From assembly GCA_964369475.1 (NCBI GenBank), contig CAYJFK010000020.1, positions 13,370-37,369 of the forward strand: a stretch of 24,000 nt of DNA, given 5' to 3'. How positions within the stretch are numbered: position 1 is the first letter of the stretch; each line of letters opens with the position of its first letter. Both the position numbers and the translations under genes were made by a program. Source of the stretch: an uncultured Oscillospiraceae bacterium. GTDB lineage: Bacteria; Bacillota; Clostridia; Oscillospirales; Feifaniaceae. The notes under the pieces were generated by a model that was not told the DNA's origin, ran no database searches, and saw only the letters and a program-made list of their open reading frames with translations. Shown in pieces: positions 2,943 through 24,000 of the stretch.

Positions 2943-2998
2943 CAAATTAAGTATATTTTATTGTATTATTCACATTGTGTCAATGCGGAGGTTTTTTT

Positions 2999-3595
2999 AT
3001 GACAAAGGGCGAAAAGAAAAAGATGGAAGTCTATAATTTTATAAGAGACTTTATGGAAGATCAGGGTGTCCCCCCCACAACAAGGGAGATTGGCGACGGT
3101 GTTGGCTTAAAGTCGACCTCGACTGTTTTTATGTATATAAAAAAGCTCGAGGCAGATGGGCTGCTCGGCGGCAGTAGCGGCAGAAAAAGGGGCGCAATGC
3201 CGACAGAAAAAAGAGAGCCCTCGGCATATATCCCCATGCTCGGAACGGTAACGGCAGGCCAGCCAATTTTAGCTATCGAAAGCCACGAGGAGACAGTGCC
3301 TGTCGACCCATCATTTGTTAGAGGCAGAGAACTCTTTGCCCTAAAAATAAAGGGCGACAGCATGATAAATGCAGGCATTTTAGATAAAGACACAGTCTTT
3401 GTAGAACGCACCCCCGACGCAAGAAACGGCGAAATAGTAGTAGCCCTAATAGAAGACGAAGCAACGGTAAAGCGCTTTTACAAAAAAGAAAACGCCTTCT
3501 GGCTAATGCCCGAAAACGATGCCTATCAACCGATCATTGTGGAAGAAGTTGTTATTTTAGGCAAAGTGGTGGGGCTTTTTAGGGATTTTATATAG
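2999..3595 (+). CDS. lexA: LexA repressor (SOS regulator, S24 peptidase)
   Basis: Start placed at ATG 2999 (MTKGEKKK...) with GGAGG 8 nt upstream; the track ORF begins at 2975. N-terminal winged HTH (PPTTREIGDGVGLKSTSTVFMYIKKLE), Ala-Gly cleavage site (VTAGQP), catalytic Ser (KGDSM) and Lys (VKRF). Confidence 0.93.
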   Translation: MTKGEKKKMEVYNFIRDFMEDQGVPPTTREIGDGVGLKSTSTVFMYIKKLEADGLLGGSSGRKRGAMPTEKREPSAYIPMLGTVTAGQPILAIESHEETVPVDPSFVRGRELFALKIKGDSMINAGILDKDTVFVERTPDARNGEIVVALIEDEATVKRFYKKENAFWLMPENDAYQPIIVEEVVILGKVVGLFRDFI

Positions 3596-3613
3596 CAAAA
3601 TCGGAGATTTTGC

Positions 3614-3783
3614 AGGTAAGAAGTAATAGTGAATAAGTAACAACTATGGTGGAAAAACCAAAGGTTTTTCAATAATATATTCAATACTTAATTGCCAACG
3701 GCAATTAAGTTACCATACTTATTACCTATTCACTATTACTTATTACTTAACTTATTCACTTCTTCACTATTACTTATTACTTA
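3614..3783. repeat. Foldback unit 1L: arm - module B - module A - arm' (arm' doubled)
   Basis: Arm AGGTAAG AAGTAAT AGTGAAT AAGTAAC AACTATG G (3614-3649). B is GAAAAACC-AAA-GGTTTTTC (3652-3670). A is CTTAATTGCC-AAC-GGCAATTAAG (3687-3709). The inverted arm spans 3710-3783 with about 10 heptads. Confidence 0.85.
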
Positions 3784-3803
3784 AAAAAAGAGGAGCGTTT
3801 TTT

Positions 3804-4160
3804 ATGAAGGACAGTGAACTTACCCGTCAGTCGGTAGAGCTTTCTGTTTGTATTGTGGAATATTATAAGTGGCTTGTTTATGAGAAAAAAGAATTTGTTA
3901 TGTCTAAGCAGCTACTTAAAAGTGGAACAAGTGTTGGTGCGAATATTCACGAGGCTTTTTATGGAGTTAGTAAGGCAGACTTTATTTCCAAAATGCAGAT
4001 AGCTCTAAAAGAGTGTGCAGAAAGTGAGTATTGGCTCATAATCTTAAAACGCACAAACTATTTTGATATTAAATTTAACCAATTGGAAAACTATATAAAA
4101 TCCCTCAAAAAAATGCTAATATCCACATTAAATACTTCAAAAAAAAGCTTCAATGAGTAA
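3804..4160 (+). CDS. Four-helix-bundle protein (23S rRNA intervening-sequence protein family, PF05635/TIGR02436-like; Avd-like fold)
   Basis: 118-aa ORF with GAGGAG RBS at 3790-3795. The core LLKSGTSVGANIHEAFYGVSKADFISKMQIALKECAESEYWLIIL matches the family signature (QLxRSxxSIxANIAEG...DFxxxxxIAxGSxxEtxYWL). Confidence 0.85.
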   Translation: MKDSELTRQSVELSVCIVEYYKWLVYEKKEFVMSKQLLKSGTSVGANIHEAFYGVSKADFISKMQIALKECAESEYWLIILKRTNYFDIKFNQLENYIKSLKKMLISTLNTSKKSFNE

Positions 4161-4178
4161 TAACTCATTGAAGCTTTT
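4143..4178 (+). terminator. Hairpin spanning the stop codon of the four-helix-bundle gene
   Basis: 15-bp perfect stem AAAAGCTTCAATGAG (4143-4157) / CTCATTGAAGCTTTT (4164-4178) with loop TAATAA containing the stop. A-run and T-run sit inside the stem ends. Confidence 0.5.
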
Positions 4179-4314
4179 TAAGTAAAAAGTAATAGTGAAT
4201 AGGTAATAAGTATGGTAACTTAATTGCCTGTGGCAATTAAGTATTTTATATTATATAGAAAAACCTTTGGTTTTTCCTCCATACTTCTTACTTCTTCACT
4301 ATTACTTATTACCT
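4179..4314. repeat. Foldback unit 1R: arm - module A - module B - arm'
   Basis: Arm AAGTAAA AAGTAAT AGTGAAT AGGTAAT AAGTATG G. A is ACTTAATTGCC-TGT-GGCAATTAAGT (4218-4242). B is GAAAAACC-TTT-GGTTTTTC (4258-4276). The inverted arm spans 4277-4314. Confidence 0.85.
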
Positions 4315-4334
4315 GCAAAATCTTCGATTTTGCC

Positions 4335-6389
4335 TTATACCTCCGTTATAACCGGCAGTATCATTGGGCTTCTCTTTGTTTTATGATAAATATAGCCCGA
4401 AAGTGCATTCTTTATAGCGCTCTTTAGTGCGCCGAATTCGATTGGCATCATGGGGAGGGTTTTGTCTAAGGCGGTGCGTAGTGCGTCGTGTGCGCCGTCC
4501 ATTAGATCCTCTGATTCCTTAACAAATACAAAGCCTCTCGAAACGAGCTCGGGTTGGGAGACAAGCTCGCCTGTGGCACGGTCTACTGTCAAGGCTACAA
4601 CTACAAGGCCGTCCTCGGCGAGGTGCTTTCTGTCACGAAGGACAACACTGCCAACGTCGCCGACACCTATTCCGTCTATAAGCACCTTGCCCGAAGGCAC
4701 TGTACCGTTTAGCTTGCAGCTGTTTGCCGTCATTTCTATAACTCGGCCTATCTCGGAAACAAAAATTCTGCTCTCGTCTATGCCCATTAATTTTGCTGTT
4801 GCAGCGTGGGCAACGAGGTGAGAGTATTCGCCGTGTATCGGAATAAAATATTTCGGCTTTGTAAGTGCCAAAACGAGCTTTTGTTCCTCTTGCGAGGCAT
4901 GGCCCGAAACGTGAACCTCTGCTTGTTTTGTCGTTATTACCTCTGCGCCCCTTTTAAGAAGTCCGTTTATAACCTTGGAGACAGTCTTTTCATTGCCGGG
5001 GATTGGAGAGGCCGAAATAATAACAAGGTCGTCTGGCCCAACTTCAACATTCCTGTGCTCACTCGCCGCCATTCTTGAAAGAGCCGACATGGGCTCGCCC
5101 TGACTGCCGGTAGTAACGAGCACAACACGGTGTGGCTCGTAGTCCTTAATGCGGTCTATGTCTATCAAAATGCCTTCTTCCACATCGATAACACCGAGAG
5201 CAATTGCGGCATTAACATTGTTGATCATAGAGCGACCCGAAACAGCGACCTTTCGTCCTTGCTTGGAGGCGGCATCTATTATCTGCTTAACCCTGTGAAT
5301 GTTAGAGGCAAATGTCGTAACTATAATACGTTTTTTTGTCGTCTCGAAAAGGCGGTCGATGGCACGGGCAACAACATGCTCGCTCTTTGTGTGTCCTGCC
5401 CTCTCGGAATTTGTCGAGTCGGAAAGAAGTGCCAAAACACCCTTTTTACCAAGCTCGCCAAGGCGTGCAAGATCTATCATCTCGCCGTCTATCGGGGTCG
5501 TGTCAATCTTAAAGTCGCCTGTAAATATAATGCGGCCGGCAGGTGTTTCTATGCCGAGCATACATGCATCGGGAATGGAGTGGTTGGCACGAATTATCTC
5601 GACCTTAAAAGAGCCTAAGGTAAGCACATCGCCGTATTCTACTTGATATAGCTCGGTAGTGGCGGTAAGCTTGTGCTCGTCGAGCTTGTTTTTAACAAGT
5701 CCGCATGTAAGCCTTGTGCCGTAGACAGGCGCATTAACCTGCTTTAAAAGGTAGGGTATGCCGCCCGTGTGGTCTTCGTGACCGTGGGTAATAACGATAC
5801 CACGGAGCTTGCTTGCGTTGTTTACCACATAGGTAAAATCGGGTATAACAAGATCGACTCCGGGCATAGAATCGTCGGGGAAGGCTATGCCGCAGTCGAG
5901 CACAAGCATGTCGTCGCCGCACTCGATTACAGTAAGGTTTTTGCCGACCTCGTGCAGTCCGCCAAGCGGGATAATGCGTAGCTTGGAGGAGTTGTCTGTC
6001 TTTAGTGCGGGCGAGCGCTTTAGAATATTTTGCGGCACTCTCGGTGCGGCAGGTTGTGGGGCTTTTCTTGTAGTCATTATCTTGGCACCGCCACGGCGCT
6101 TGTTATTTCTTCCCTTGTTTTGACCGCCCTGACCATTAGATCCTTGTCCACCCTGACCGCTCGTCTTGGTCTGATTTGTATTTGCAGGGGCTGTGCCCTC
6201 TGCTTGCTTGTTTTGCGCCTCGGGCTTTTTCTTAGGCTGAGAGCCGCCCTGTTTGCCGCCTCTCTTGCCTCTGCCTCCCTCGGGCTTTTGAGCGCTCTCT
6301 CCTCTTTTGTCGAAAATAGAGGGCATAACCTCTCCCACATTTTGGGTAGAAGGCCGAGCCTTGCGCTTGGGTTTGTTGTCTTTGTTCAT
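4335..6389 (-). CDS. rnj: Ribonuclease J (metallo-beta-lactamase/beta-CASP) with a ~130-aa basic low-complexity N-terminal extension
   Basis: 684-aa ORF. Contains LRIIPLGGLHEVGKNLTVIE, the HxHxDH motif (ITHGHEDHTGG) and the beta-CASP and C-terminal domains. An alternative internal start at M105 (ATG 6075-6077) would give a canonical ~580-aa protein. Confidence 0.9.
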   Translation of the reverse strand: MNKDNKPKRKARPSTQNVGEVMPSIFDKRGESAQKPEGGRGKRGGKQGGSQPKKKPEAQNKQAEGTAPANTNQTKTSGQGGQGSNGQGGQNKGRNNKRRGGAKIMTTRKAPQPAAPRVPQNILKRSPALKTDNSSKLRIIPLGGLHEVGKNLTVIECGDDMLVLDCGIAFPDDSMPGVDLVIPDFTYVVNNASKLRGIVITHGHEDHTGGIPYLLKQVNAPVYGTRLTCGLVKNKLDEHKLTATTELYQVEYGDVLTLGSFKVEIIRANHSIPDACMLGIETPAGRIIFTGDFKIDTTPIDGEMIDLARLGELGKKGVLALLSDSTNSERAGHTKSEHVVARAIDRLFETTKKRIIVTTFASNIHRVKQIIDAASKQGRKVAVSGRSMINNVNAAIALGVIDVEEGILIDIDRIKDYEPHRVVLVTTGSQGEPMSALSRMAASEHRNVEVGPDDLVIISASPIPGNEKTVSKVINGLLKRGAEVITTKQAEVHVSGHASQEEQKLVLALTKPKYFIPIHGEYSHLVAHAATAKLMGIDESRIFVSEIGRVIEMTANSCKLNGTVPSGKVLIDGIGVGDVGSVVLRDRKHLAEDGLVVVALTVDRATGELVSQPELVSRGFVFVKESEDLMDGAHDALRTALDKTLPMMPIEFGALKSAIKNALSGYIYHKTKRSPMILPVITEV

Positions 6390-10617: not shown

Positions 10618-10716
10618 AAAAAGTGCTCCTTTTTAGGCAATTACAAATAAACGCTTCTCTGCAATTATATATATTATCATATGTAGGGAAAAAATTCAAG
10701 ATAAATATAATAAATT

Positions 10717-10980
10717 AAGAACTATATAAGTAAGAACTATACTAAGTAATAGGTAATAGTGAAGAAGTAATAACTATGGAAAAAATTGCTTGCGCAATTT
10801 TAATTATATTCGGAGCTAAACCCCAACGGGGTTTAGCGGATAAGCAAAAAAACGCTATGCGACATTTTGTCGCATAGCGTTTTTTACCCTCAAATTGCCA
10901 AAGGCAATTTGATATTTCTAATATAAAAGCGGTAGCTTTTACACCATAGCTCTTACTTCTTACTTATTACTTATTACTTA
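10717..10980. repeat. Heptad-armed foldback element 2: arm - F - G - C - D - E - arm'
   Basis: Arm AAGTAAT AGGTAAT AGTGAAG AAGTAAT AACTATG G (10744-10779), preceded by partial arm duplications. F spans 10782-10801, G 10815-10837, C 10846-10885, D 10891-10911, E 10925-10940. The inverted arm spans 10944-10980 (5 heptads). Confidence 0.85.
10846..10885. terminator. Bidirectional intrinsic terminator (module C), downstream of the ABC operon
   Basis: A7 - CGCTATGCGACA - TTT - TGTCGCATAGCG - T6. Confidence 0.7.
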
Positions 10981-10989
10981 AAAACCCTC

Positions 10990-11631
10990 TCACCCCACAT
11001 CGACTCCTTCCATGACCTTTCGTGAAAGTTTTCTCGAAAAGTAGTGTGCAAGTAGGCATAACGGTAACGATGATATTGCGCCGAGGGAGATCGTTGTTAG
11101 GTCGGCAGACATTTGAAGACCCATAAGACCGCTGTAACCGGCTATCGGGATAAATACCAACAAAAACATTAATATCCTTGTCTTTTCCACACCGTATTTG
11201 TAAAGAATGGGGATCGATACCGCCTGATAAAGTAGGCTGACCGACATTGTTATAAAGATAAGCATTACCCCAACTATCGCTATGTCATATTCAAGCCCGT
11301 ATAGCATGGAATGAATCAAAACAAGCAGAGTGGAAATGCCGCCGCCGACAAATATAGTCAGTAGGCCAAAGCTGTATCTGCCGTCTACAACTTCTTTTCT
11401 TGTTACATTTAAGGTCATAGCATACTTGTTGCCGCCCGACATTGCGTCGTAGCTAAAGGCGGAATATATCTGCGAGCCCAATATAAAGACAAGCACCGAG
11501 TATAAAAATGACATGTCGGTTATTATGCCGATGGCAAGATATACGACCCCGAGAAGCAAAACGGTGTTGAGCGATTTGCTTGAATTTTGCCAATCCTTGA
11601 GCACAAGCCCATTAACTGCTGATTTTCTCAT
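10990..11631 (-). CDS. ABC-2 family transporter permease
   Basis: 213 aa, about 6 predicted TM helices, GGAGG RBS. Last gene of the GntR-ABC operon. Confidence 0.75.
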   Translation of the reverse strand: MRKSAVNGLVLKDWQNSSKSLNTVLLLGVVYLAIGIITDMSFLYSVLVFILGSQIYSAFSYDAMSGGNKYAMTLNVTRKEVVDGRYSFGLLTIFVGGGISTLLVLIHSMLYGLEYDIAIVGVMLIFITMSVSLLYQAVSIPILYKYGVEKTRILMFLLVFIPIAGYSGLMGLQMSADLTTISLGAISSLPLCLLAHYFSRKLSRKVMEGVDVG

Positions 11632-13530: not shown

Positions 13531-13612
13531 ATTTGAGAGCCTTTGTCAAGTGCTTTTGAGAAAATTTTTTAAACTGGAAAAATCAGTCAAGCTTATCGTG
13601 GGATTAGTTAAG

Positions 13613-13655
13613 CAGTAACTAAGAAGTAATAAGTATGGCATAAAAGCTCTGCTTT
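13613..13655. repeat. Solo/degenerate half copy of the foldback element (arm + E-like hairpin)
   Basis: AGTAACT AAGAAGT AATAAGTATGG arm-like sequence followed by AAAAGC-TCT-GCTTTT. No matching inverted arm. Confidence 0.5.
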
Positions 13656-13733
13656 TAATTTAAAAATGCCGTGGTATCTTAAAAATATTACTGTACACAT
13701 TTCACAAAAAAATCACACAGTTACAAATAACCA

Positions 13734-13817: not shown

Positions 13818-14483
13818 ATGAAAAACATAGCAAAAATCGCAATACTTCTTGCTCTGTGCCTTGTTATGACGGCATGCAGCGGCGGCGGTATAGATGCAGG
13901 CGCTTACATGAACTTAGAGCTGCAATCTACTTACCTAAACAACCACACACAGGAATTTATCGACATGCTTTCGGACGATGTAACGGTAGAAGACCTCGAA
14001 GAAATGTACTATGGCGGCGTAGAGGCTGAGGTAGATTTCTTCCTTGGTTACTATTTGGAAATATACACCGAAATGCTCTCGCAAGAGACAATCGATCGTG
14101 CAAACACACTTTTTGATCAGATCTACACAAACACAAAATACGAAATAGGCGAAGTTCGTGAGAGCGGCTCCAACTACGAAGTAGACATAACAATCTACCC
14201 GATCGACATTATCGAGAAGGTAATAACGGTAGAGTTTGTAACAGAGGCACTCGAGGCAGTCTACTCGCAAGAGGGCGCAGATGAAATGGCAATGGAGGAG
14301 CTCGAGGAGCAGTACACAGACATTATCCTTACAGCCTTAGAAGAAAACTTAGCGGCGATCGGCCACTTAGAGCCTGTAACAATAACAGCCCTAATCATAG
14401 GCGGCGACAGCTACTACGAACTAAACGACACAAGCTGGCAAGAAATCGACACCTACATCATCAGCTACGGCAGTGAGGGTTAA
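13818..14483 (+). CDS. Putative acidic lipoprotein
   Basis: 221 aa with a signal peptide and lipobox (LALCLVMTAC). GGAGAG RBS. The mature part is very acidic. Confidence 0.75.
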   Translation: MKNIAKIAILLALCLVMTACSGGGIDAGAYMNLELQSTYLNNHTQEFIDMLSDDVTVEDLEEMYYGGVEAEVDFFLGYYLEIYTEMLSQETIDRANTLFDQIYTNTKYEIGEVRESGSNYEVDITIYPIDIIEKVITVEFVTEALEAVYSQEGADEMAMEELEEQYTDIILTALEENLAAIGHLEPVTITALIIGGDSYYELNDTSWQEIDTYIISYGSEG

Positions 14484-14484
14484 T

Positions 14485-14811
14485 AAAAATTGCTTTGGCA
14501 ATTTTTAGGTAATAGGTAATAGTGAAGAAGTAAGAGGTAATAGTGAATAAGTAATAAGTATGGTAACTTAATTGCCTTTGGCAATTAAGTATTAAATATT
14601 ATATAGAAAAACCCCAAAGGGTTTTTCTGCCATACCTAGTACTTCTTGCCTAAGTAAAAAAACGCTGTGCGACAATATGTCGCACAGCGTTTTTTTACTC
14701 TCAAATTGCCAAGGGCAATTTGATATGTTTAATATAAAAGCGGTAGCTTTTACACCATAGTTATTACTTCTTCACTATTACCTATTACTTCTTCACTCTT
14801 ACCTCTTACTT
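14485..14811. repeat. Heptad-armed foldback element 3: F - arm(8 heptads) - A - B - degenerate arm' - C - D - E - arm'(8 heptads)
   Basis: F spans 14485-14506. Arm AGGTAAT AGGTAAT AGTGAAG AAGTAAG AGGTAAT AGTGAAT AAGTAAT AAGTATG G (14507-14562). A spans 14565-14589, B 14606-14627, C 14656-14696, D 14702-14722, E 14736-14751. The inverted arm spans 14755-14811. Confidence 0.85.
14656..14696. terminator. Bidirectional intrinsic terminator (module C) between the convergent lipoprotein and comEA genes
   Basis: A7 - CGCTGTGCGACA - ATA - TGTCGCACAGCG - T7. Confidence 0.7.
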
Positions 14812-15252
14812 TAAAAAAACCACAAACTCCAAAAGCCCCTCCAAGACCTTCTCCCCAATGCCGGAGACCGCCAGTAAATCTTCTGCCTCGCTGTATGGCC
14901 TGCCCTCTATAATGCGCTCAGCTATTGTCGGGCCTATGCCGGGGAGGGTGTCGAGTAGGTCGGCAGGGGCGCTGTTTATGTCTATCTTGCCGTCTATTAT
15001 ATACTGCGGTGGCGTAGTGTCGTTTTGCTCCGACTGCACTAAAGTGCCGTCTCCATAGCCGACACGATTGCCGCCCAAAAGGAGCATGGCAAGGCAAGAG
15101 CATAGCAAAATGGCAAAGAGCACAAGATAAAACCCAACAGACCCTCGCCTTACCGCCCTTTTCTCGGGCAGAGGTGAGGCCGTATGGCCTCCCTCGTCTT
15201 TGCTCATGAGCAGCGATATATAATGCTCCGAGTCACGCTTGTTACTATCCAC
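14806..15252 (-). CDS. comEA: ComEA family helix-hairpin-helix DNA-binding protein
   Basis: 148 aa, GTG start with GGGGGTG RBS and one TM helix. C-terminal HhH repeats (INSAPADLLDTLPGIGPTIAERII...LLAVSGIGEKVLEGL). Confidence 0.85.
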   Translation of the reverse strand: MDSNKRDSEHYISLLMSKDEGGHTASPLPEKRAVRRGSVGFYLVLFAILLCSCLAMLLLGGNRVGYGDGTLVQSEQNDTTPPQYIIDGKIDINSAPADLLDTLPGIGPTIAERIIEGRPYSEAEDLLAVSGIGEKVLEGLLEFVVFLK

Positions 15253-22215: not shown

Positions 22216-22244
22216 TTGCGTTTTTATCCGAAATGGGGTATAAT
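22216..22244 (+). promoter_or_regulatory. Promoter firing directly into foldback element 4
   Basis: TTGCGT (22216-22221), 17-nt spacer, TATAAT (22239-22244). The left arm of the element starts at about 22249-22253. Confidence 0.55.
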
Positions 22245-22248
22245 GATT

Positions 22249-22389
22249 AAAGAAGTAATAAGTAATAGTTAAGAAGTAATAAGAATGGTAACTTAATTGA
22301 CGTTGGCAATTAAGTATTGAATATAATATTAGAAAAACCCAAAGGTTTTTCCACCATAGTTATTACTTATTCACTCTTACTTATTACCT
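22249..22389. repeat. Heptad-armed foldback element 4: arm - A - B - arm' (minimal form)
   Basis: Arm AAGTAAT AAGTAAT AGTTAAG AAGTAAT AAGAATG G (22253-22288). A is CTTAATTGAC-GTT-GGCAATTAAG (one mismatch). B is GAAAAACC-CAAA-GGTTTTTC (22332-22351). The inverted arm spans 22354-22389. Confidence 0.85.
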
Positions 22390-22408
22390 AAAAAAGGGGG
22401 TTCTTATT

Positions 22409-22639
22409 TTGACAGCAAAAAAATGGGGGTCGCTTGTGGCGCCTTTGGTCGTGACGGTACTGCTTTGCATGTATTTTGCATTTTGGGGATTTGCACTGAT
22501 CTTTACACCTTCTAACATATTGTTTAAGGTGCTGGCCTGTGGAATTCCCGCATGTTTAATTGTTGTAAGTTTGTACAACCTAATACACAGATATAACGAA
22601 TTAAAAGGAGGAATAGAAGATGATCTTGACAACTACTGA
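22409..22639 (+). CDS. Hypothetical two-TM small membrane protein
   Basis: 76 aa, TTG start 8 nt after GGGGG. Two hydrophobic helices. Overlaps the ybjQ start by 20 nt. Confidence 0.55.
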   Translation: MTAKKWGSLVAPLVVTVLLCMYFAFWGFALIFTPSNILFKVLACGIPACLIVVSLYNLIHRYNELKGGIEDDLDNY

Positions 22640-22931
22640 AAACATCCCCGGAAAAACATACGAGATAATCGGACTTGCAAGGGGGTCTACCGTGCAGTCT
22701 AAAAACTTCGGCAAGGACATTATGTCGGGACTTAAAGGCCTTGTCGGCGGCGAAATATCGGCATATACCGAAATGATGAACGAGGCAAGGGCAATAGCGA
22801 CAAAGCGCATGGTAGAGGATGCCCAAATGCAAGGCGCAAATGCCATAGTAATGATGCGCTACTCCTCCTCCGCTGTAATGCAATCAGCAGCTGAGGTAAT
22901 AGCATATGGTACGGCGGTTAGGATACTTTAG
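22620..22931 (+). CDS. ybjQ: YbjQ family protein (UPF0145, heavy-metal-binding domain)
   Basis: 103 aa. MILTTTENIPGKTYEIIGLARGSTVQSKNFGKDIMSGLKGLVGGEISAYTEMMNEAR... is the canonical YbjQ pattern. AGGAGG RBS. Confidence 0.88.
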   Translation: MILTTTENIPGKTYEIIGLARGSTVQSKNFGKDIMSGLKGLVGGEISAYTEMMNEARAIATKRMVEDAQMQGANAIVMMRYSSSAVMQSAAEVIAYGTAVRIL

Positions 22932-23140
22932 TTTTAAGTAAGAGTGAAGAGTGAAGAGTGAAGAGTTATGGTGAAAAATTGCTGAGGCAATTTTTGGTTT
23001 TATATAATAATAAAGGGCGGGCACCTTTGGTGCCCGCCCTTTAGCTTAGAGAAAAACCTTTAGGTTTTTTATTGTATCAAATACTTAATTGCCAAAGGCA
23101 ATTAAGTTACCATAACTCTTCACTCTTCACTCTTCACTAA
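22932..23140. repeat. Heptad-armed foldback element 5: arm - F - G - B - A - arm'
   Basis: Arm AAGTAAG AGTGAAG x3 AGTTATG G (22936-22971). F spans 22974-22995. G is AAAGGGCGGGCACC-TTT-GGTGCCCGCCCTTT (23012-23042). B spans 23051-23070, A 23083-23107. The inverted arm 23110-23138 is a perfect 29/29 complement of 22943-22971. Confidence 0.88.
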
Positions 23141-24000
23141 AACAACTCCCCTTTTACCTTTGCGAAGCATTCTACGGCGTATAAGAGTTGCTCTTTTGTG
23201 TGTGCGGCCGAGACTTGGGTTCTTATTCTGGCTTTGCCTTTGGGGACTACGGGGTAGGAAAATGGCACGACGTAGACGCCGAGCTCTAACATTCGAGCGG
23301 CGAATTTGCCGGCAATGTGGCCGTCGTATAGCATTATCGGGACAATGGGGTGCTCGCCCTCCAAAACGTCAAGGCCGACCTTGGCGAGTTCCTCCCTGAA
23401 AAACGCGGTGTTTTCCATTAGCCTGTCACGAAGTTTTGTGCTGTCCTCTACAATGTCGAGCGCCTTAACAGAAGCGGCGGCGACGGCAGGGGCTAAGGTG
23501 TTGGAAAAAAGATATGGGCGAGCCCTTTGGCGAAGGAGGTCTATTATTACCTTGGAGGCAGAAATATATCCGCCCGATGCACCGCCGAGCGCCTTGCCGA
23601 GGGTGCTCGATATTATGTCTACCCTGCCCATAACACCGCAGTGCTCATGAGTGCCTCTGCCGGTCTTTCCCATAAAGCCTGTGGCATGGCTATCGTCGAC
23701 CATAACAAGCGCATCATACCTTTCTGCAAGGGTGCAGACCCCCTCCAAATTGGCTATGTAGCCGTCCATCGAGAAGATACCGTCGGTAACGATAAGCTTA
23801 ATGCGAGCGTCCTTTGCCTCGATGAGCTTTGCCTCGAGATCTTGCATGTCGTTGTTCTTATAGCGGTAGCGGCTCGCCTTGGAAAGGCGCACTCCGTCTA
23901 TAATGCTTGCATGGTTTAGCTCGTCCGATATTATGGCGTCGCCCTCCCCTGTCAGCGCTTCGAATATGCCGCCGTTAGCATCGAAACAAGAGGAAAATAA
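23137..24000 (-). CDS. kbl: Glycine C-acetyltransferase (2-amino-3-ketobutyrate CoA ligase), C-terminal 287 codons; 5' end beyond the right edge
   Basis: The frame stays open to position 24000 ([42 protein letters not shown]...). The track start at 23892 is an internal GTG. PLP-lysine motif [38 protein letters not shown] closely parallels Kbl. Confidence 0.88.

Follow-up and report, generated by a model that had tools for sequence, protein, structure and literature searches.

The analyzed DNA is a 24,000-nt stretch of contig CAYJFK010000020.1 from an uncultured Oscillospiraceae bacterium (here called the window), in which the spacer between lexA and the RNase J gene rnj is taken up by a composite element. 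The left neighbor lexA (2975–3595, plus strand) is recognized by the Pfam families Peptidase_S24 and LexA_DNA_bind, and the right neighbor rnj (4335–6389, minus strand) by RNase_J_b_CASP, RNase_J_C, and Lactamase_B. Between them, two inverted copies of a hairpin-rich repeat enclose the gene of a 118-aa four-helix-bundle protein of the PF05635/TIGR02436 family (3804–4160, plus strand), and the arms of the repeat are built of tandem 7-nt units. Complementary arrays of such heptamers are found beside genes of this family in five phyla, and the lexA–rnj element appears to be one copy of a widespread, apparently unnamed cassette that resembles the intervening sequences (IVSs) of 23S rRNA genes but lies between protein genes. 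A preliminary description of this DNA had recognized the inverted copies and the protein family; the tandem-heptamer nature of the arms, the conserved companion of the gene family, had gone unseen.

The element is a 162-nt inverted repeat with arms at 3589–3750 and 4178–4339 that are 90% complementary and spaced by 427 nt, so that, as in an IVS, complementary terminal arms surround an insert. The inverted copies had previously been placed at 3595–3750 and 4179–4333, which is borne out by these slightly wider borders. The TAG of lexA (3593–3595) overlaps the first base of the element and the stop codon of rnj occupies 4335–4337. The element thus fills the whole gap from stop codon to stop codon, as had been stated, although not exactly to the nucleotide, as nt 4334 is left over. 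When the left copy is compared with the reverse complement of the right copy (segments in left-copy coordinates), the tip hairpin t1 (3595–3613) agrees at 18 of 19 positions, with the mismatch in the loop, and the outer arm (3614–3650) at 32 of 37. The hairpin h1, GGAAAAACC..GGTTTTTC (3651–3670), is identical (20/20), the AT spacer that follows (3671–3686) agrees at 11/16, the hairpin h2, CTTAATTGCC..GGCAATTAAG (3687–3709), at 21/23 with both mismatches confined to the loop, and the inner arm (3710–3750) at 40/41. The counts given in the preliminary description for the outer and inner parts (34/39 and 39/40) come close to these recomputed values, and its reading of one identical hairpin pair and a second pair differing in the loop holds.

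The left outer arm (3614–3650, plus strand) consists of the imperfect heptamers GTAAGAA, GTAATAG, TGAATAA, GTAACAA, and CTATGGT and is followed by the loop of the left copy (3651–3709) and the inner arm (3710–3750, plus strand), which has TATTCAC-type units, a period-7 signal, and 40/41 complementarity to 4178–4218. The right copy mirrors this arrangement with an inner arm (4178–4218, plus strand), a loop (4219–4277) made of h2 (4219–4241), an AT spacer, and h1 (4258–4277), and an outer arm (4278–4314, plus strand). The tips are formed by GCAAAATC-GGA-GATTTTGC on the left (3595–3613) and GCAAAATC-TTC-GATTTTGC on the right (4315–4333). As had been noticed before, this hairpin stands at both tips; it occurs in the window at 3595 and 4315 only, the outer ends of the element (two matches versus 0.02 expected). 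Each copy is also a foldback by itself, as had likewise been described: the outer arm pairs with the inner arm over 35 nt at 89% on the left (3614–3650 with 3712–3746) and over 41 nt at 83% on the right (4278–4314 with 4175–4215), and the RNA folds of the single copies reach −59.5 and −60.1 kcal/mol (z about −10). An additional partial copy of the inner arm is located just 5′ of the ribosome-binding site (3751–3790, plus strand), where 3747–3780 is a 71% direct copy of 3713–3746 and 3758–3787 is 90% complementary to 4175–4204. The RNA fold of the whole element reaches −297 to −300 kcal/mol (z −23 to −34). The long-range stem is thermodynamically favored, with about −297 kcal/mol for the whole versus about −120 for the two local foldbacks plus the structure of the open reading frame (ORF) itself.

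The gene is preceded by a Shine-Dalgarno sequence that is read directly as GAGGAG (3791–3796, plus strand), 7 nt 5′ of the ATG. A perfect 17-bp hairpin (4142–4179, with stem halves 4142–4158 and 4163–4179) spans its TAA stop codon and has T-runs after it on both strands. The claim of a 118-aa ORF with its own ribosome-binding site therefore stands, whereas the 15 bp stated for the stop-codon hairpin have to be corrected to 17. By direct reading, this hairpin has the look of a terminator for both directions. On the plus strand it stands ahead of the right copy, so that a 162-bp long-range RNA stem would need read-through. The left foldback lies in the 3′ UTR of lexA and the 5′ UTR of the ORF, and the right foldback in the 3′ UTR of rnj. 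The structures that actually form as RNA may be these two local foldbacks, which belong to different UTRs. A promoter-like TTGCCA-16 nt-CATACT (9/12 matches) is formed by h2 and the inner arm in each flanking foldback, with the left one (3692–3719, plus strand) directed into the ORF and the right one (4236–4209, minus strand) antisense to it. Promoter-like sites in 3400–4500 are not enriched over shuffled sequence (5 versus 3.1 ± 1.9 expected), and the only terminator-like call in the promoter/terminator scan of this segment is the h2 hairpin.

No Rfam family, LSU rRNA included, and no tRNA is found in a scan of the whole window, and none of its sizeable ORFs has a reverse transcriptase (RVT) or transposase domain, in agreement with what had been read from the sequence at the outset. 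A repeat search of the window shows the foldback family only, with no obvious template/variable repeat pair, and no target-site duplication is evident at the element borders on inspection by eye.

The 118-aa protein belongs to the family that had been proposed for it. It matches PF05635 with 85.1 bits (cut-off 33.8), residues 2–106 covering profile positions 1–105 of 106, and TIGR02436 with 93.3 bits (cut-off 24). PF05635 is its sole Pfam match, and the protein is not a HUH tyrosine transposase. The AlphaFold model takes on four helices with a mean confidence (pLDDT) of 94.7. The closest structures in Foldseek are two uncharacterized family members, 2RLD (template modeling (TM) score 0.88–0.92 at 51% identity; phmmer E = 1e-29) and 2GSC (TM 0.77–0.84). 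Both entries contain five chains, and the protein is probably pentameric. It is basic (pI 9.0). Thirteen columns are invariant over 56 homologs of 39–75% identity, which together with the strong ribosome-binding site suggests a functional gene. Avd chains from the diversity-generating retroelement (DGR) of a Bordetella phage align with the model over its full length (TM 0.66–0.76, with weak E-values), while sequence and profile searches with the 118-aa protein do not reach them. The assertion that Avd shares the fold and family thus stands for a distantly shared fold and fails for a sequence-level match. No match is returned by PADLOC, so the protein is not a catalogued defense protein. The family is very large, with at least 7991 matching sequences found, and is the commonest one beside DGR reverse transcriptases (PMC10053308). 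In DGR cryo-EM work, the Avd pentamer binds an RNA stem-loop (bioRxiv 10.1101/2023.10.23.563531).

The arms at lexA–rnj have relatives elsewhere in the window. Period 7 is the sole periodicity there, with 40 scoring segments of at least 16/21 versus none for periods 5, 6, 8, and 9, and the units are tandem, 7 bp long, intergenic, and hairpin-forming, as in the STRRs of cyanobacteria, repetitive sequences that are short and repeated in tandem. The dispersed ORF-less relatives that had been reported amount to five sites, one of them partial. Their common design starts with a heptad arm, which is followed by small palindromic hairpins, in some cases a hairpin of terminator-like type, and the complementary heptad arm. 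Foldback C (10716–10990; −103.6 kcal/mol, z −13.6) has heptad arms around hairpins and a terminator-like hairpin. Foldback D (14485–14825; −158.9 kcal/mol, z −20.9) has 63-nt arms of 89% complementarity that enclose h2, h1, a terminator-like hairpin, and two further hairpins. Foldback E (22240–22400) is a unit with the module order of the right copy, and foldback F (22928–23142; −115.7 kcal/mol, z −19) has GTGAAGA x3 and TCTTCAC x3 arms that enclose a GC-rich terminator hairpin and h1/h2-type hairpins. The fifth site (13609–13665) is a partial or degenerate single arm with one small hairpin and no significant fold. Over the foldback sites, z ranges from −6 to −21. The h2 hairpin, AATTGCC-N3-GGCAATT, occurs at 7 window sites where none is expected; a scan of a genome collection (to which the source genome does not belong) with this hairpin gave only two unrelated single matches. 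The foldbacks abut stop codons between housekeeping genes, among them prfA, sua5, coaE, metG, a DEAD helicase gene, and ybjQ. In this genome, the arms of the cassette seem to have grown to foldbacks of about 155 nt, and foldbacks lacking the ORF to have spread to many intergenic sites.

Several details of the copies bear on their history. A terminator-like hairpin, AAAAAAACGCTATGCGAC...GTCGCATAGCGTTTTTT, is present at 10843–10885 and 14651–14699 with 89–91% identity and a compensatory stem change (ATGCGAC/GTCGCAT versus GTGCGAC/GTCGCAC); being repeated, this terminator-like module belongs to the repeated element. The left arm of foldback C (10744–10779) and the right arm of foldback D (14755–14790) are complementary at 36 of 36 positions, while C's own arms pair far worse, which suggests recombination or a shared master copy with subsequent decay. 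The arms of C have diverged without compensation, which is more in line with decay after spread than with selection acting on each copy. All GTAA/GTGA-type arms of the window have the loop-side end (C/G/T/A)TATGG(T/A/C), or the variant GAATGGT in the arm of E; the sites are 3642–3650, 4208–4216, 10771–10779, 13630–13638, 14556–14564, 22282–22289, and 22964–22972. At a homologous metagenomic locus (L002, 4996–5004), the family gene starts at the ATG inside the CTATGG motif, and the ORF-less foldbacks might be internal-deletion derivatives that retain this start codon. A reading of the 35-nt arm as five heptamers for the five subunits of a pentamer was dropped, as arm lengths are 30–63 nt in the window and far more elsewhere.

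The first clue to a wider regularity came from two metagenomic homologs (74% and 71% identical), which have GTGAAGA-, GACTAAG-, and GGCTAAT-type heptamers upstream of the gene and their complements downstream. Of 71 metagenome loci collected, 51 have usable flanks, which together with the window makes 52 loci. Over these 52, period 7 gives a mean for the best 28-nt self-match of 17.2 on the upstream side and 15.0 on the downstream side, versus 12.1–12.9 for periods 4–6 and 8–11. An array lies in a flank at about 33 of the 51 metagenome loci. Strong period-7 windows make up 2.84% of the positions within 200 nt of the gene and 0.085% of those more than 600 nt away, whereas other periods do not exceed 0.07% close to the gene and drop to about zero at a distance. 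On viral contigs, arrays accompany 11 of 18 loci (period-7 windows 5.2% near the gene versus 0.55% far). All ten named plasmid or chromid loci (Euhalothece, Treponema saccharophilum, Bernardetia, Monoglobus, Chondrinema, Anabaena, Nostoc, Chlorohelix, Planktothrix, and Gloeocapsa) carry them, which together represent Cyanobacteriota, Spirochaetota, Bacteroidota, Bacillota, and Chloroflexota. The complementarity between upstream and downstream arrays is significant at each of the ten (z = 7.0–20.9), and the unit is lineage-specific (CCAGTGA, ATTAGTG, GTCGGAG, AATCCCC, TTTAGAT, and others). As the unit differs per lineage while the arrays stay complementary, the stem is conserved and its sequence is not.

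In 517 kb of fetched DNA, 110 of 145 arrays (76%) lie within 300 nt of a family gene, a proportion that has to be read with the choice of loci for carrying the gene in mind. The 35 orphan arrays mostly share their unit with the arrays of the local family gene. On the viral contig L097 (476–5313), three paralogs within 6.3 kb are each set in inverted arrays of their own unit (AATTACG, AACCTAT, and AAAATAG). The contig further has a foldback of the AACCTAT unit that lacks an ORF, and GGTCAGA represents a fourth type of array. At locus L031, foldbacks come between gene copies in tandem, an arrangement like that in the window. The preliminary interpretation of an ORF inside a long stem outside rRNA is thereby supported and generalized. 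In the searched literature, no link of the PF05635 family to heptamer (STRR-like) arrays was found beyond the description of the Coxiella IVS. The embedding of this family in complementary heptamer arrays across five phyla, with its ties to IVSs and STRRs, thus appears to be undescribed.

The family gene behaves as a discrete insert. It stands alone between cistrons of otherwise contiguous operons, at the junctions hsdS|hsdR, cas2|cas1, drmD|mmeI, and RND adaptor|RND permease (RND, resistance-nodulation-division), and further at DUF1156|Swt1-HEPN in two phyla and between a methyltransferase gene and recF. The order DUF1156 protein, four-helix-bundle gene, Swt1-family HEPN protein is the same on plasmids of Chlorohelix (L106) and Gloeocapsa (L108), members of two phyla, so that either the block moved as a whole or the small gene is part of that system. 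A left motif and the start of xisH are common to three related Nostoc plasmids. In between, Nostoc punctiforme has array, ORF, and array; in the remaining two plasmids, whose xisH-xisI is 98.4% and 93.7% identical, this place is taken by about 220 nt of unrelated sequence devoid of arrays. Arrays and ORF therefore come and go together. The cassette borders are at most 6 nt from the outer array edge on the right and about 22 nt from it on the left. The comparison represents a replacement at a homologous site, with no clean empty site. The recurrence of the gene with its heptamer arms in five phyla suggests that PF05635 genes are carried about as stem-flanked cassettes far outside ribosomal RNA.

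The family gene is not the sole cargo of such arrays. In the type I restriction-modification operon of L060 (852–2016), a 351-aa RhuM/Fic-like ORF lies in GTGTTAA arrays between hsdM and hsdS, and the family gene is located after hsdS, so that the arrays mark several cistron junctions of one operon. The idea that the arms are strictly private to the family gene was rejected on account of other cargo in the same arrays, at L060 and at a second locus, L088. At the locus of the closest metagenomic homolog (L001, 1291–1692), a second ORF of 133 aa with a HELLH motif and no Pfam match on record shares the heptamer-armed interval with the family gene.

The nearest relatives of the neighboring genes are from Clostridia (Solibaculum, Howiella, Oscillospiraceae) and not from filamentous or heterocystous cyanobacteria. 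The closest RNase J proteins are 64% identical, and their rnj genes are followed by a PNP_UDP_1 gene instead of lexA. Three syntenic relatives retain the prfA-sua5-coaE-SLT-rnj block and the pair of ybjQ and a gene for a 76-aa protein. About 22 kb from each of the three contain no period-7 array, versus the 40 scoring segments in the window, and their orthologous spacers hold plain GC-rich terminators. The foldback family has therefore been amplified in the lineage of the window. The pair itself (22409–22931), in which the 76-aa predicted membrane protein overlaps the start of ybjQ, is conserved in the three relatives and lies between foldbacks E and F in the window. The RNase J of the window has an N-terminal low-complexity extension of about 130 residues, rich in K, G, Q, and N, before the metallo-beta-lactamase domain; its Pfam matches begin at residue 151, and relatives are 548–771 aa long with extensions of variable length.

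We assign a probability of about 0.5 to the reading that the lexA–rnj spacer is a copy of a widespread unnamed cassette, namely a PF05635 gene with its own ribosome-binding site between complementary tandem 7-nt arrays, which works through its heptad stems. ORF-bearing IVSs of 23S rRNA have the same design, which makes the lexA–rnj element an IVS-type element between protein genes. In the proposed mechanism, the cassette would be transcribed by read-through from lexA or from a weak internal promoter. The heptad arms would then form long double-stranded RNA, either as two local stems of 35–41 bp or, on read-through, as the 162-bp long-range stem. RNase III would cut these stems as it does in the Coxiella IVS, parting the cassette mRNA from the host messages and leaving stem-capped ends. 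The basic four-helix bundle, kin of crystallographic pentamers and more distantly of Avd, would act on its own heptad stems and on those of the ORF-less foldbacks. The gene would thereby be the trans-acting partner of the repeat family and might take part in its spread, as the RAYT gene is to REPINs. Such a partnership, which had also been suggested in the preliminary description, is plausible, and the earlier interpretation as a whole is partly supported. A bolder extension, which we regard as possible but doubtful, is that PF05635 proteins and heptamer stem arrays make up a two-component selfish system across bacteria, in which the protein maintains or spreads the foldbacks, 23S IVSs are one landing site, and the STRRs as well as the foldbacks of this genome are ORF-less progeny.

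A number of observations weigh against the cassette reading and its mechanism. In the window, foldbacks also bracket the gene units at 13818–14483 and 22409–22931, so bracketing alone is not special here. With a terminator-like hairpin before the right copy, the long-range stem may seldom be formed as RNA. The upstream gene is co-oriented at only 6 of the 10 named loci, and read-through therefore cannot be the general source of transcription. Arrays are missing within 200 nt at about one third of the metagenome loci. Unrelated heptamer units accompany two proteins of 71% identity, which argues against a slow, sequence-specific coevolution of protein and repeat. The same arrays bracket cargo from outside the family, the RhuM/Fic-like gene of L060 and a phage ORF at L088, in each case with the unit of the nearby family gene. 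We know of no catalytic activity in the PF05635 family that would be able to move DNA.

Part of this evidence leads to the strongest rival, in which heptad foldbacks are an independent family that is self-propagating or generated by slippage in an STRR-like manner and serve the cassette as preferred landing places, in the loop or between the arms, with a protein that is unrelated to the repeats. An existing foldback that took up the cassette in its loop would by itself supply complementary flanks made of the genome's own unit, so that complementary flanks and matching units are accounted for without the protein. The excess of ORF-less over ORF-bearing foldbacks in the window (5 to 1) and the arrays around other cargo at L060 and L088 agree with such a target, as does the position of IVSs and STRRs inside stable RNA genes (helix 45 of 23S rRNA, PMC4990558; RNase P RNA, as cited in PMC2858038). 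The proportion of 76% of arrays within 300 nt of a family gene speaks for a tie to the gene, though the loci were chosen for it. The joint presence or absence of arrays and ORF in Nostoc, together with the syntenic sites of the relatives that lack any arrays, further counts against a landing in preexisting foldbacks, which we consider rather unlikely on balance.

If instead the inverted arrays served as single-stranded DNA hairpin substrates, attC-like in spirit, the element would be a DNA recombination cassette, moved by a host or another recombinase, with the protein as accessory or cargo. The placement between cistrons and in defense loci beside other inserted cargo would suit this, and so would the replacement of a whole cassette at a homologous site in Nostoc and the modular mosaics of the copies, in which 10744–10779 and 14755–14790 are perfect mates (36/36). 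However, neither the window nor the ten annotated loci link a recombinase to the gene, apart from a Tn7-like context in Nostoc, and no target-site duplications were seen by eye, which makes recombination of this kind improbable. The most skeptical account takes the foldbacks for repeats of the REP or BIME (bacterial interspersed mosaic element) type that act as terminators or 3′-end stabilizers of lexA and rnj, with the gene merely in between. It draws on the elements abutting stop codons, often between convergent genes, on the terminator-like hairpins with T-runs in several of them, on the two other gene units bracketed in the window, and on the inner part of the left copy, which matches the copies at 14528 (91%) and 22253 (90%) as closely as its partner. 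It leaves unexplained why period-7 arrays are tied to one gene family across phyla, and the association statistics weigh against it; nor does it account for tip hairpins that are private to the two outer ends and for the 40/41 match of the inner arms. We therefore consider coincidence quite improbable, and the cassette reading remains preferred.

What is new in the cassette reading is the regularity of the heptamer arrays across five phyla, while the kind of element is known, that is, an IVS-type PF05635 element, here between protein genes. Should genes of the family be systematically embedded in heptamer arrays, the function of PF05635 outside DGRs, the origin of IVSs, and the role of STRRs would merge into a single testable system, whose protein and repeat are defined and whose RNase III substrate is predicted. 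For rRNA intervening sequences that bear an ORF, the question of origin dates from the early 1990s. The lone family-gene inserts inside restriction-modification, CRISPR, DISARM, and efflux operons would be explained as well. The heptamer arrays would let annotators recognize the cassette and would be a possible source of operon-internal RNA processing sites.

Among known systems, Avd shares the fold of the 118-aa protein over its full length and forms a pentameric basic barrel that binds an RNA stem-loop. The window differs from a DGR in having no reverse transcriptase and no obvious template/variable repeat pair, and the protein has no sequence-level match to Avd. With regard to miniature inverted-repeat transposable elements, the element has inverted arms, no target-site duplication evident by eye at its borders, and no transposase in the window. 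A further parallel is given by REPINs (repeats of the repetitive extragenic palindromic, or REP, type that form hairpins) and their REP-associated tyrosine transposase (RAYT). The RAYT gene is flanked by its REPINs and thought to mobilize them (PMC3116915). The lexA–rnj element likewise has a single-copy gene between inverted copies of a dispersed hairpin repeat, with orphan copies scattered in intergenic space, and at L097 each gene has its own cognate repeat type, as RAYT genes do. The systems differ in that RAYT, being a HUH tyrosine transposase of the IS200-like kind, has a plausible mechanism, whereas the protein here is a small four-helix bundle, and in that the repeats are heptad arrays and not the 16–20-nt palindromes of REPINs and BIMEs.

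STRRs of filamentous cyanobacteria are 7-bp, hairpin-capable repeats that lie between cistrons such as hupS and hupL, with a function described as unknown (PMC2670836). They also lie within the gene for RNase P RNA (Vioque 1997, cited in PMC2858038). In Nostoc, Anabaena, Planktothrix, Euhalothece, and Gloeocapsa, the arrays next to the family genes appear to be of the STRR type. The repeats of the window differ from STRRs in belonging to a Clostridia-like genome, in being imperfect (GTAATAG/TGAAGAA-type), and in their tie to a PF05635 gene; in the searched literature on STRRs, which are described in cyanobacteria, no gene is linked to them.

The ORF-bearing 23S IVSs of Leptospira, Coxiella, Xanthomonas, and others are among the nearest counterparts, as they have the same protein family in the loop and complementary arms as the stem. 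IVSs are known to take the place of the terminal loops in helices 25 and 45. The lexA–rnj element differs in its position, which is between two protein genes and not in a 23S rRNA gene, in its arms of 162 nt versus a 28-bp stem, which are themselves foldbacks with nested hairpins, and in the ORF-less copies that are dispersed in the genome. Its ORF is intact and has a strong ribosome-binding site, whereas the Coxiella ORF is decaying and loses its Shine-Dalgarno sequence on cleavage. The Coxiella IVS, the best studied of those that bear an ORF, sits in helix 45 of the 23S rRNA and has 3–4 tandem GACAGAT heptamers just upstream of its PF05635 ORF, the number of which varies among strains; the cut made by RNase III falls on the beginning of the first heptamer, inside the terminal stem (PMC4990558). 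In both elements tandem heptamers adjoin the ORF, and the size is about 450–750 nt. From the GACAGAT heptamers of Coxiella it follows that the heptad-stem design is common to real IVSs and to the extra-ribosomal cassettes.

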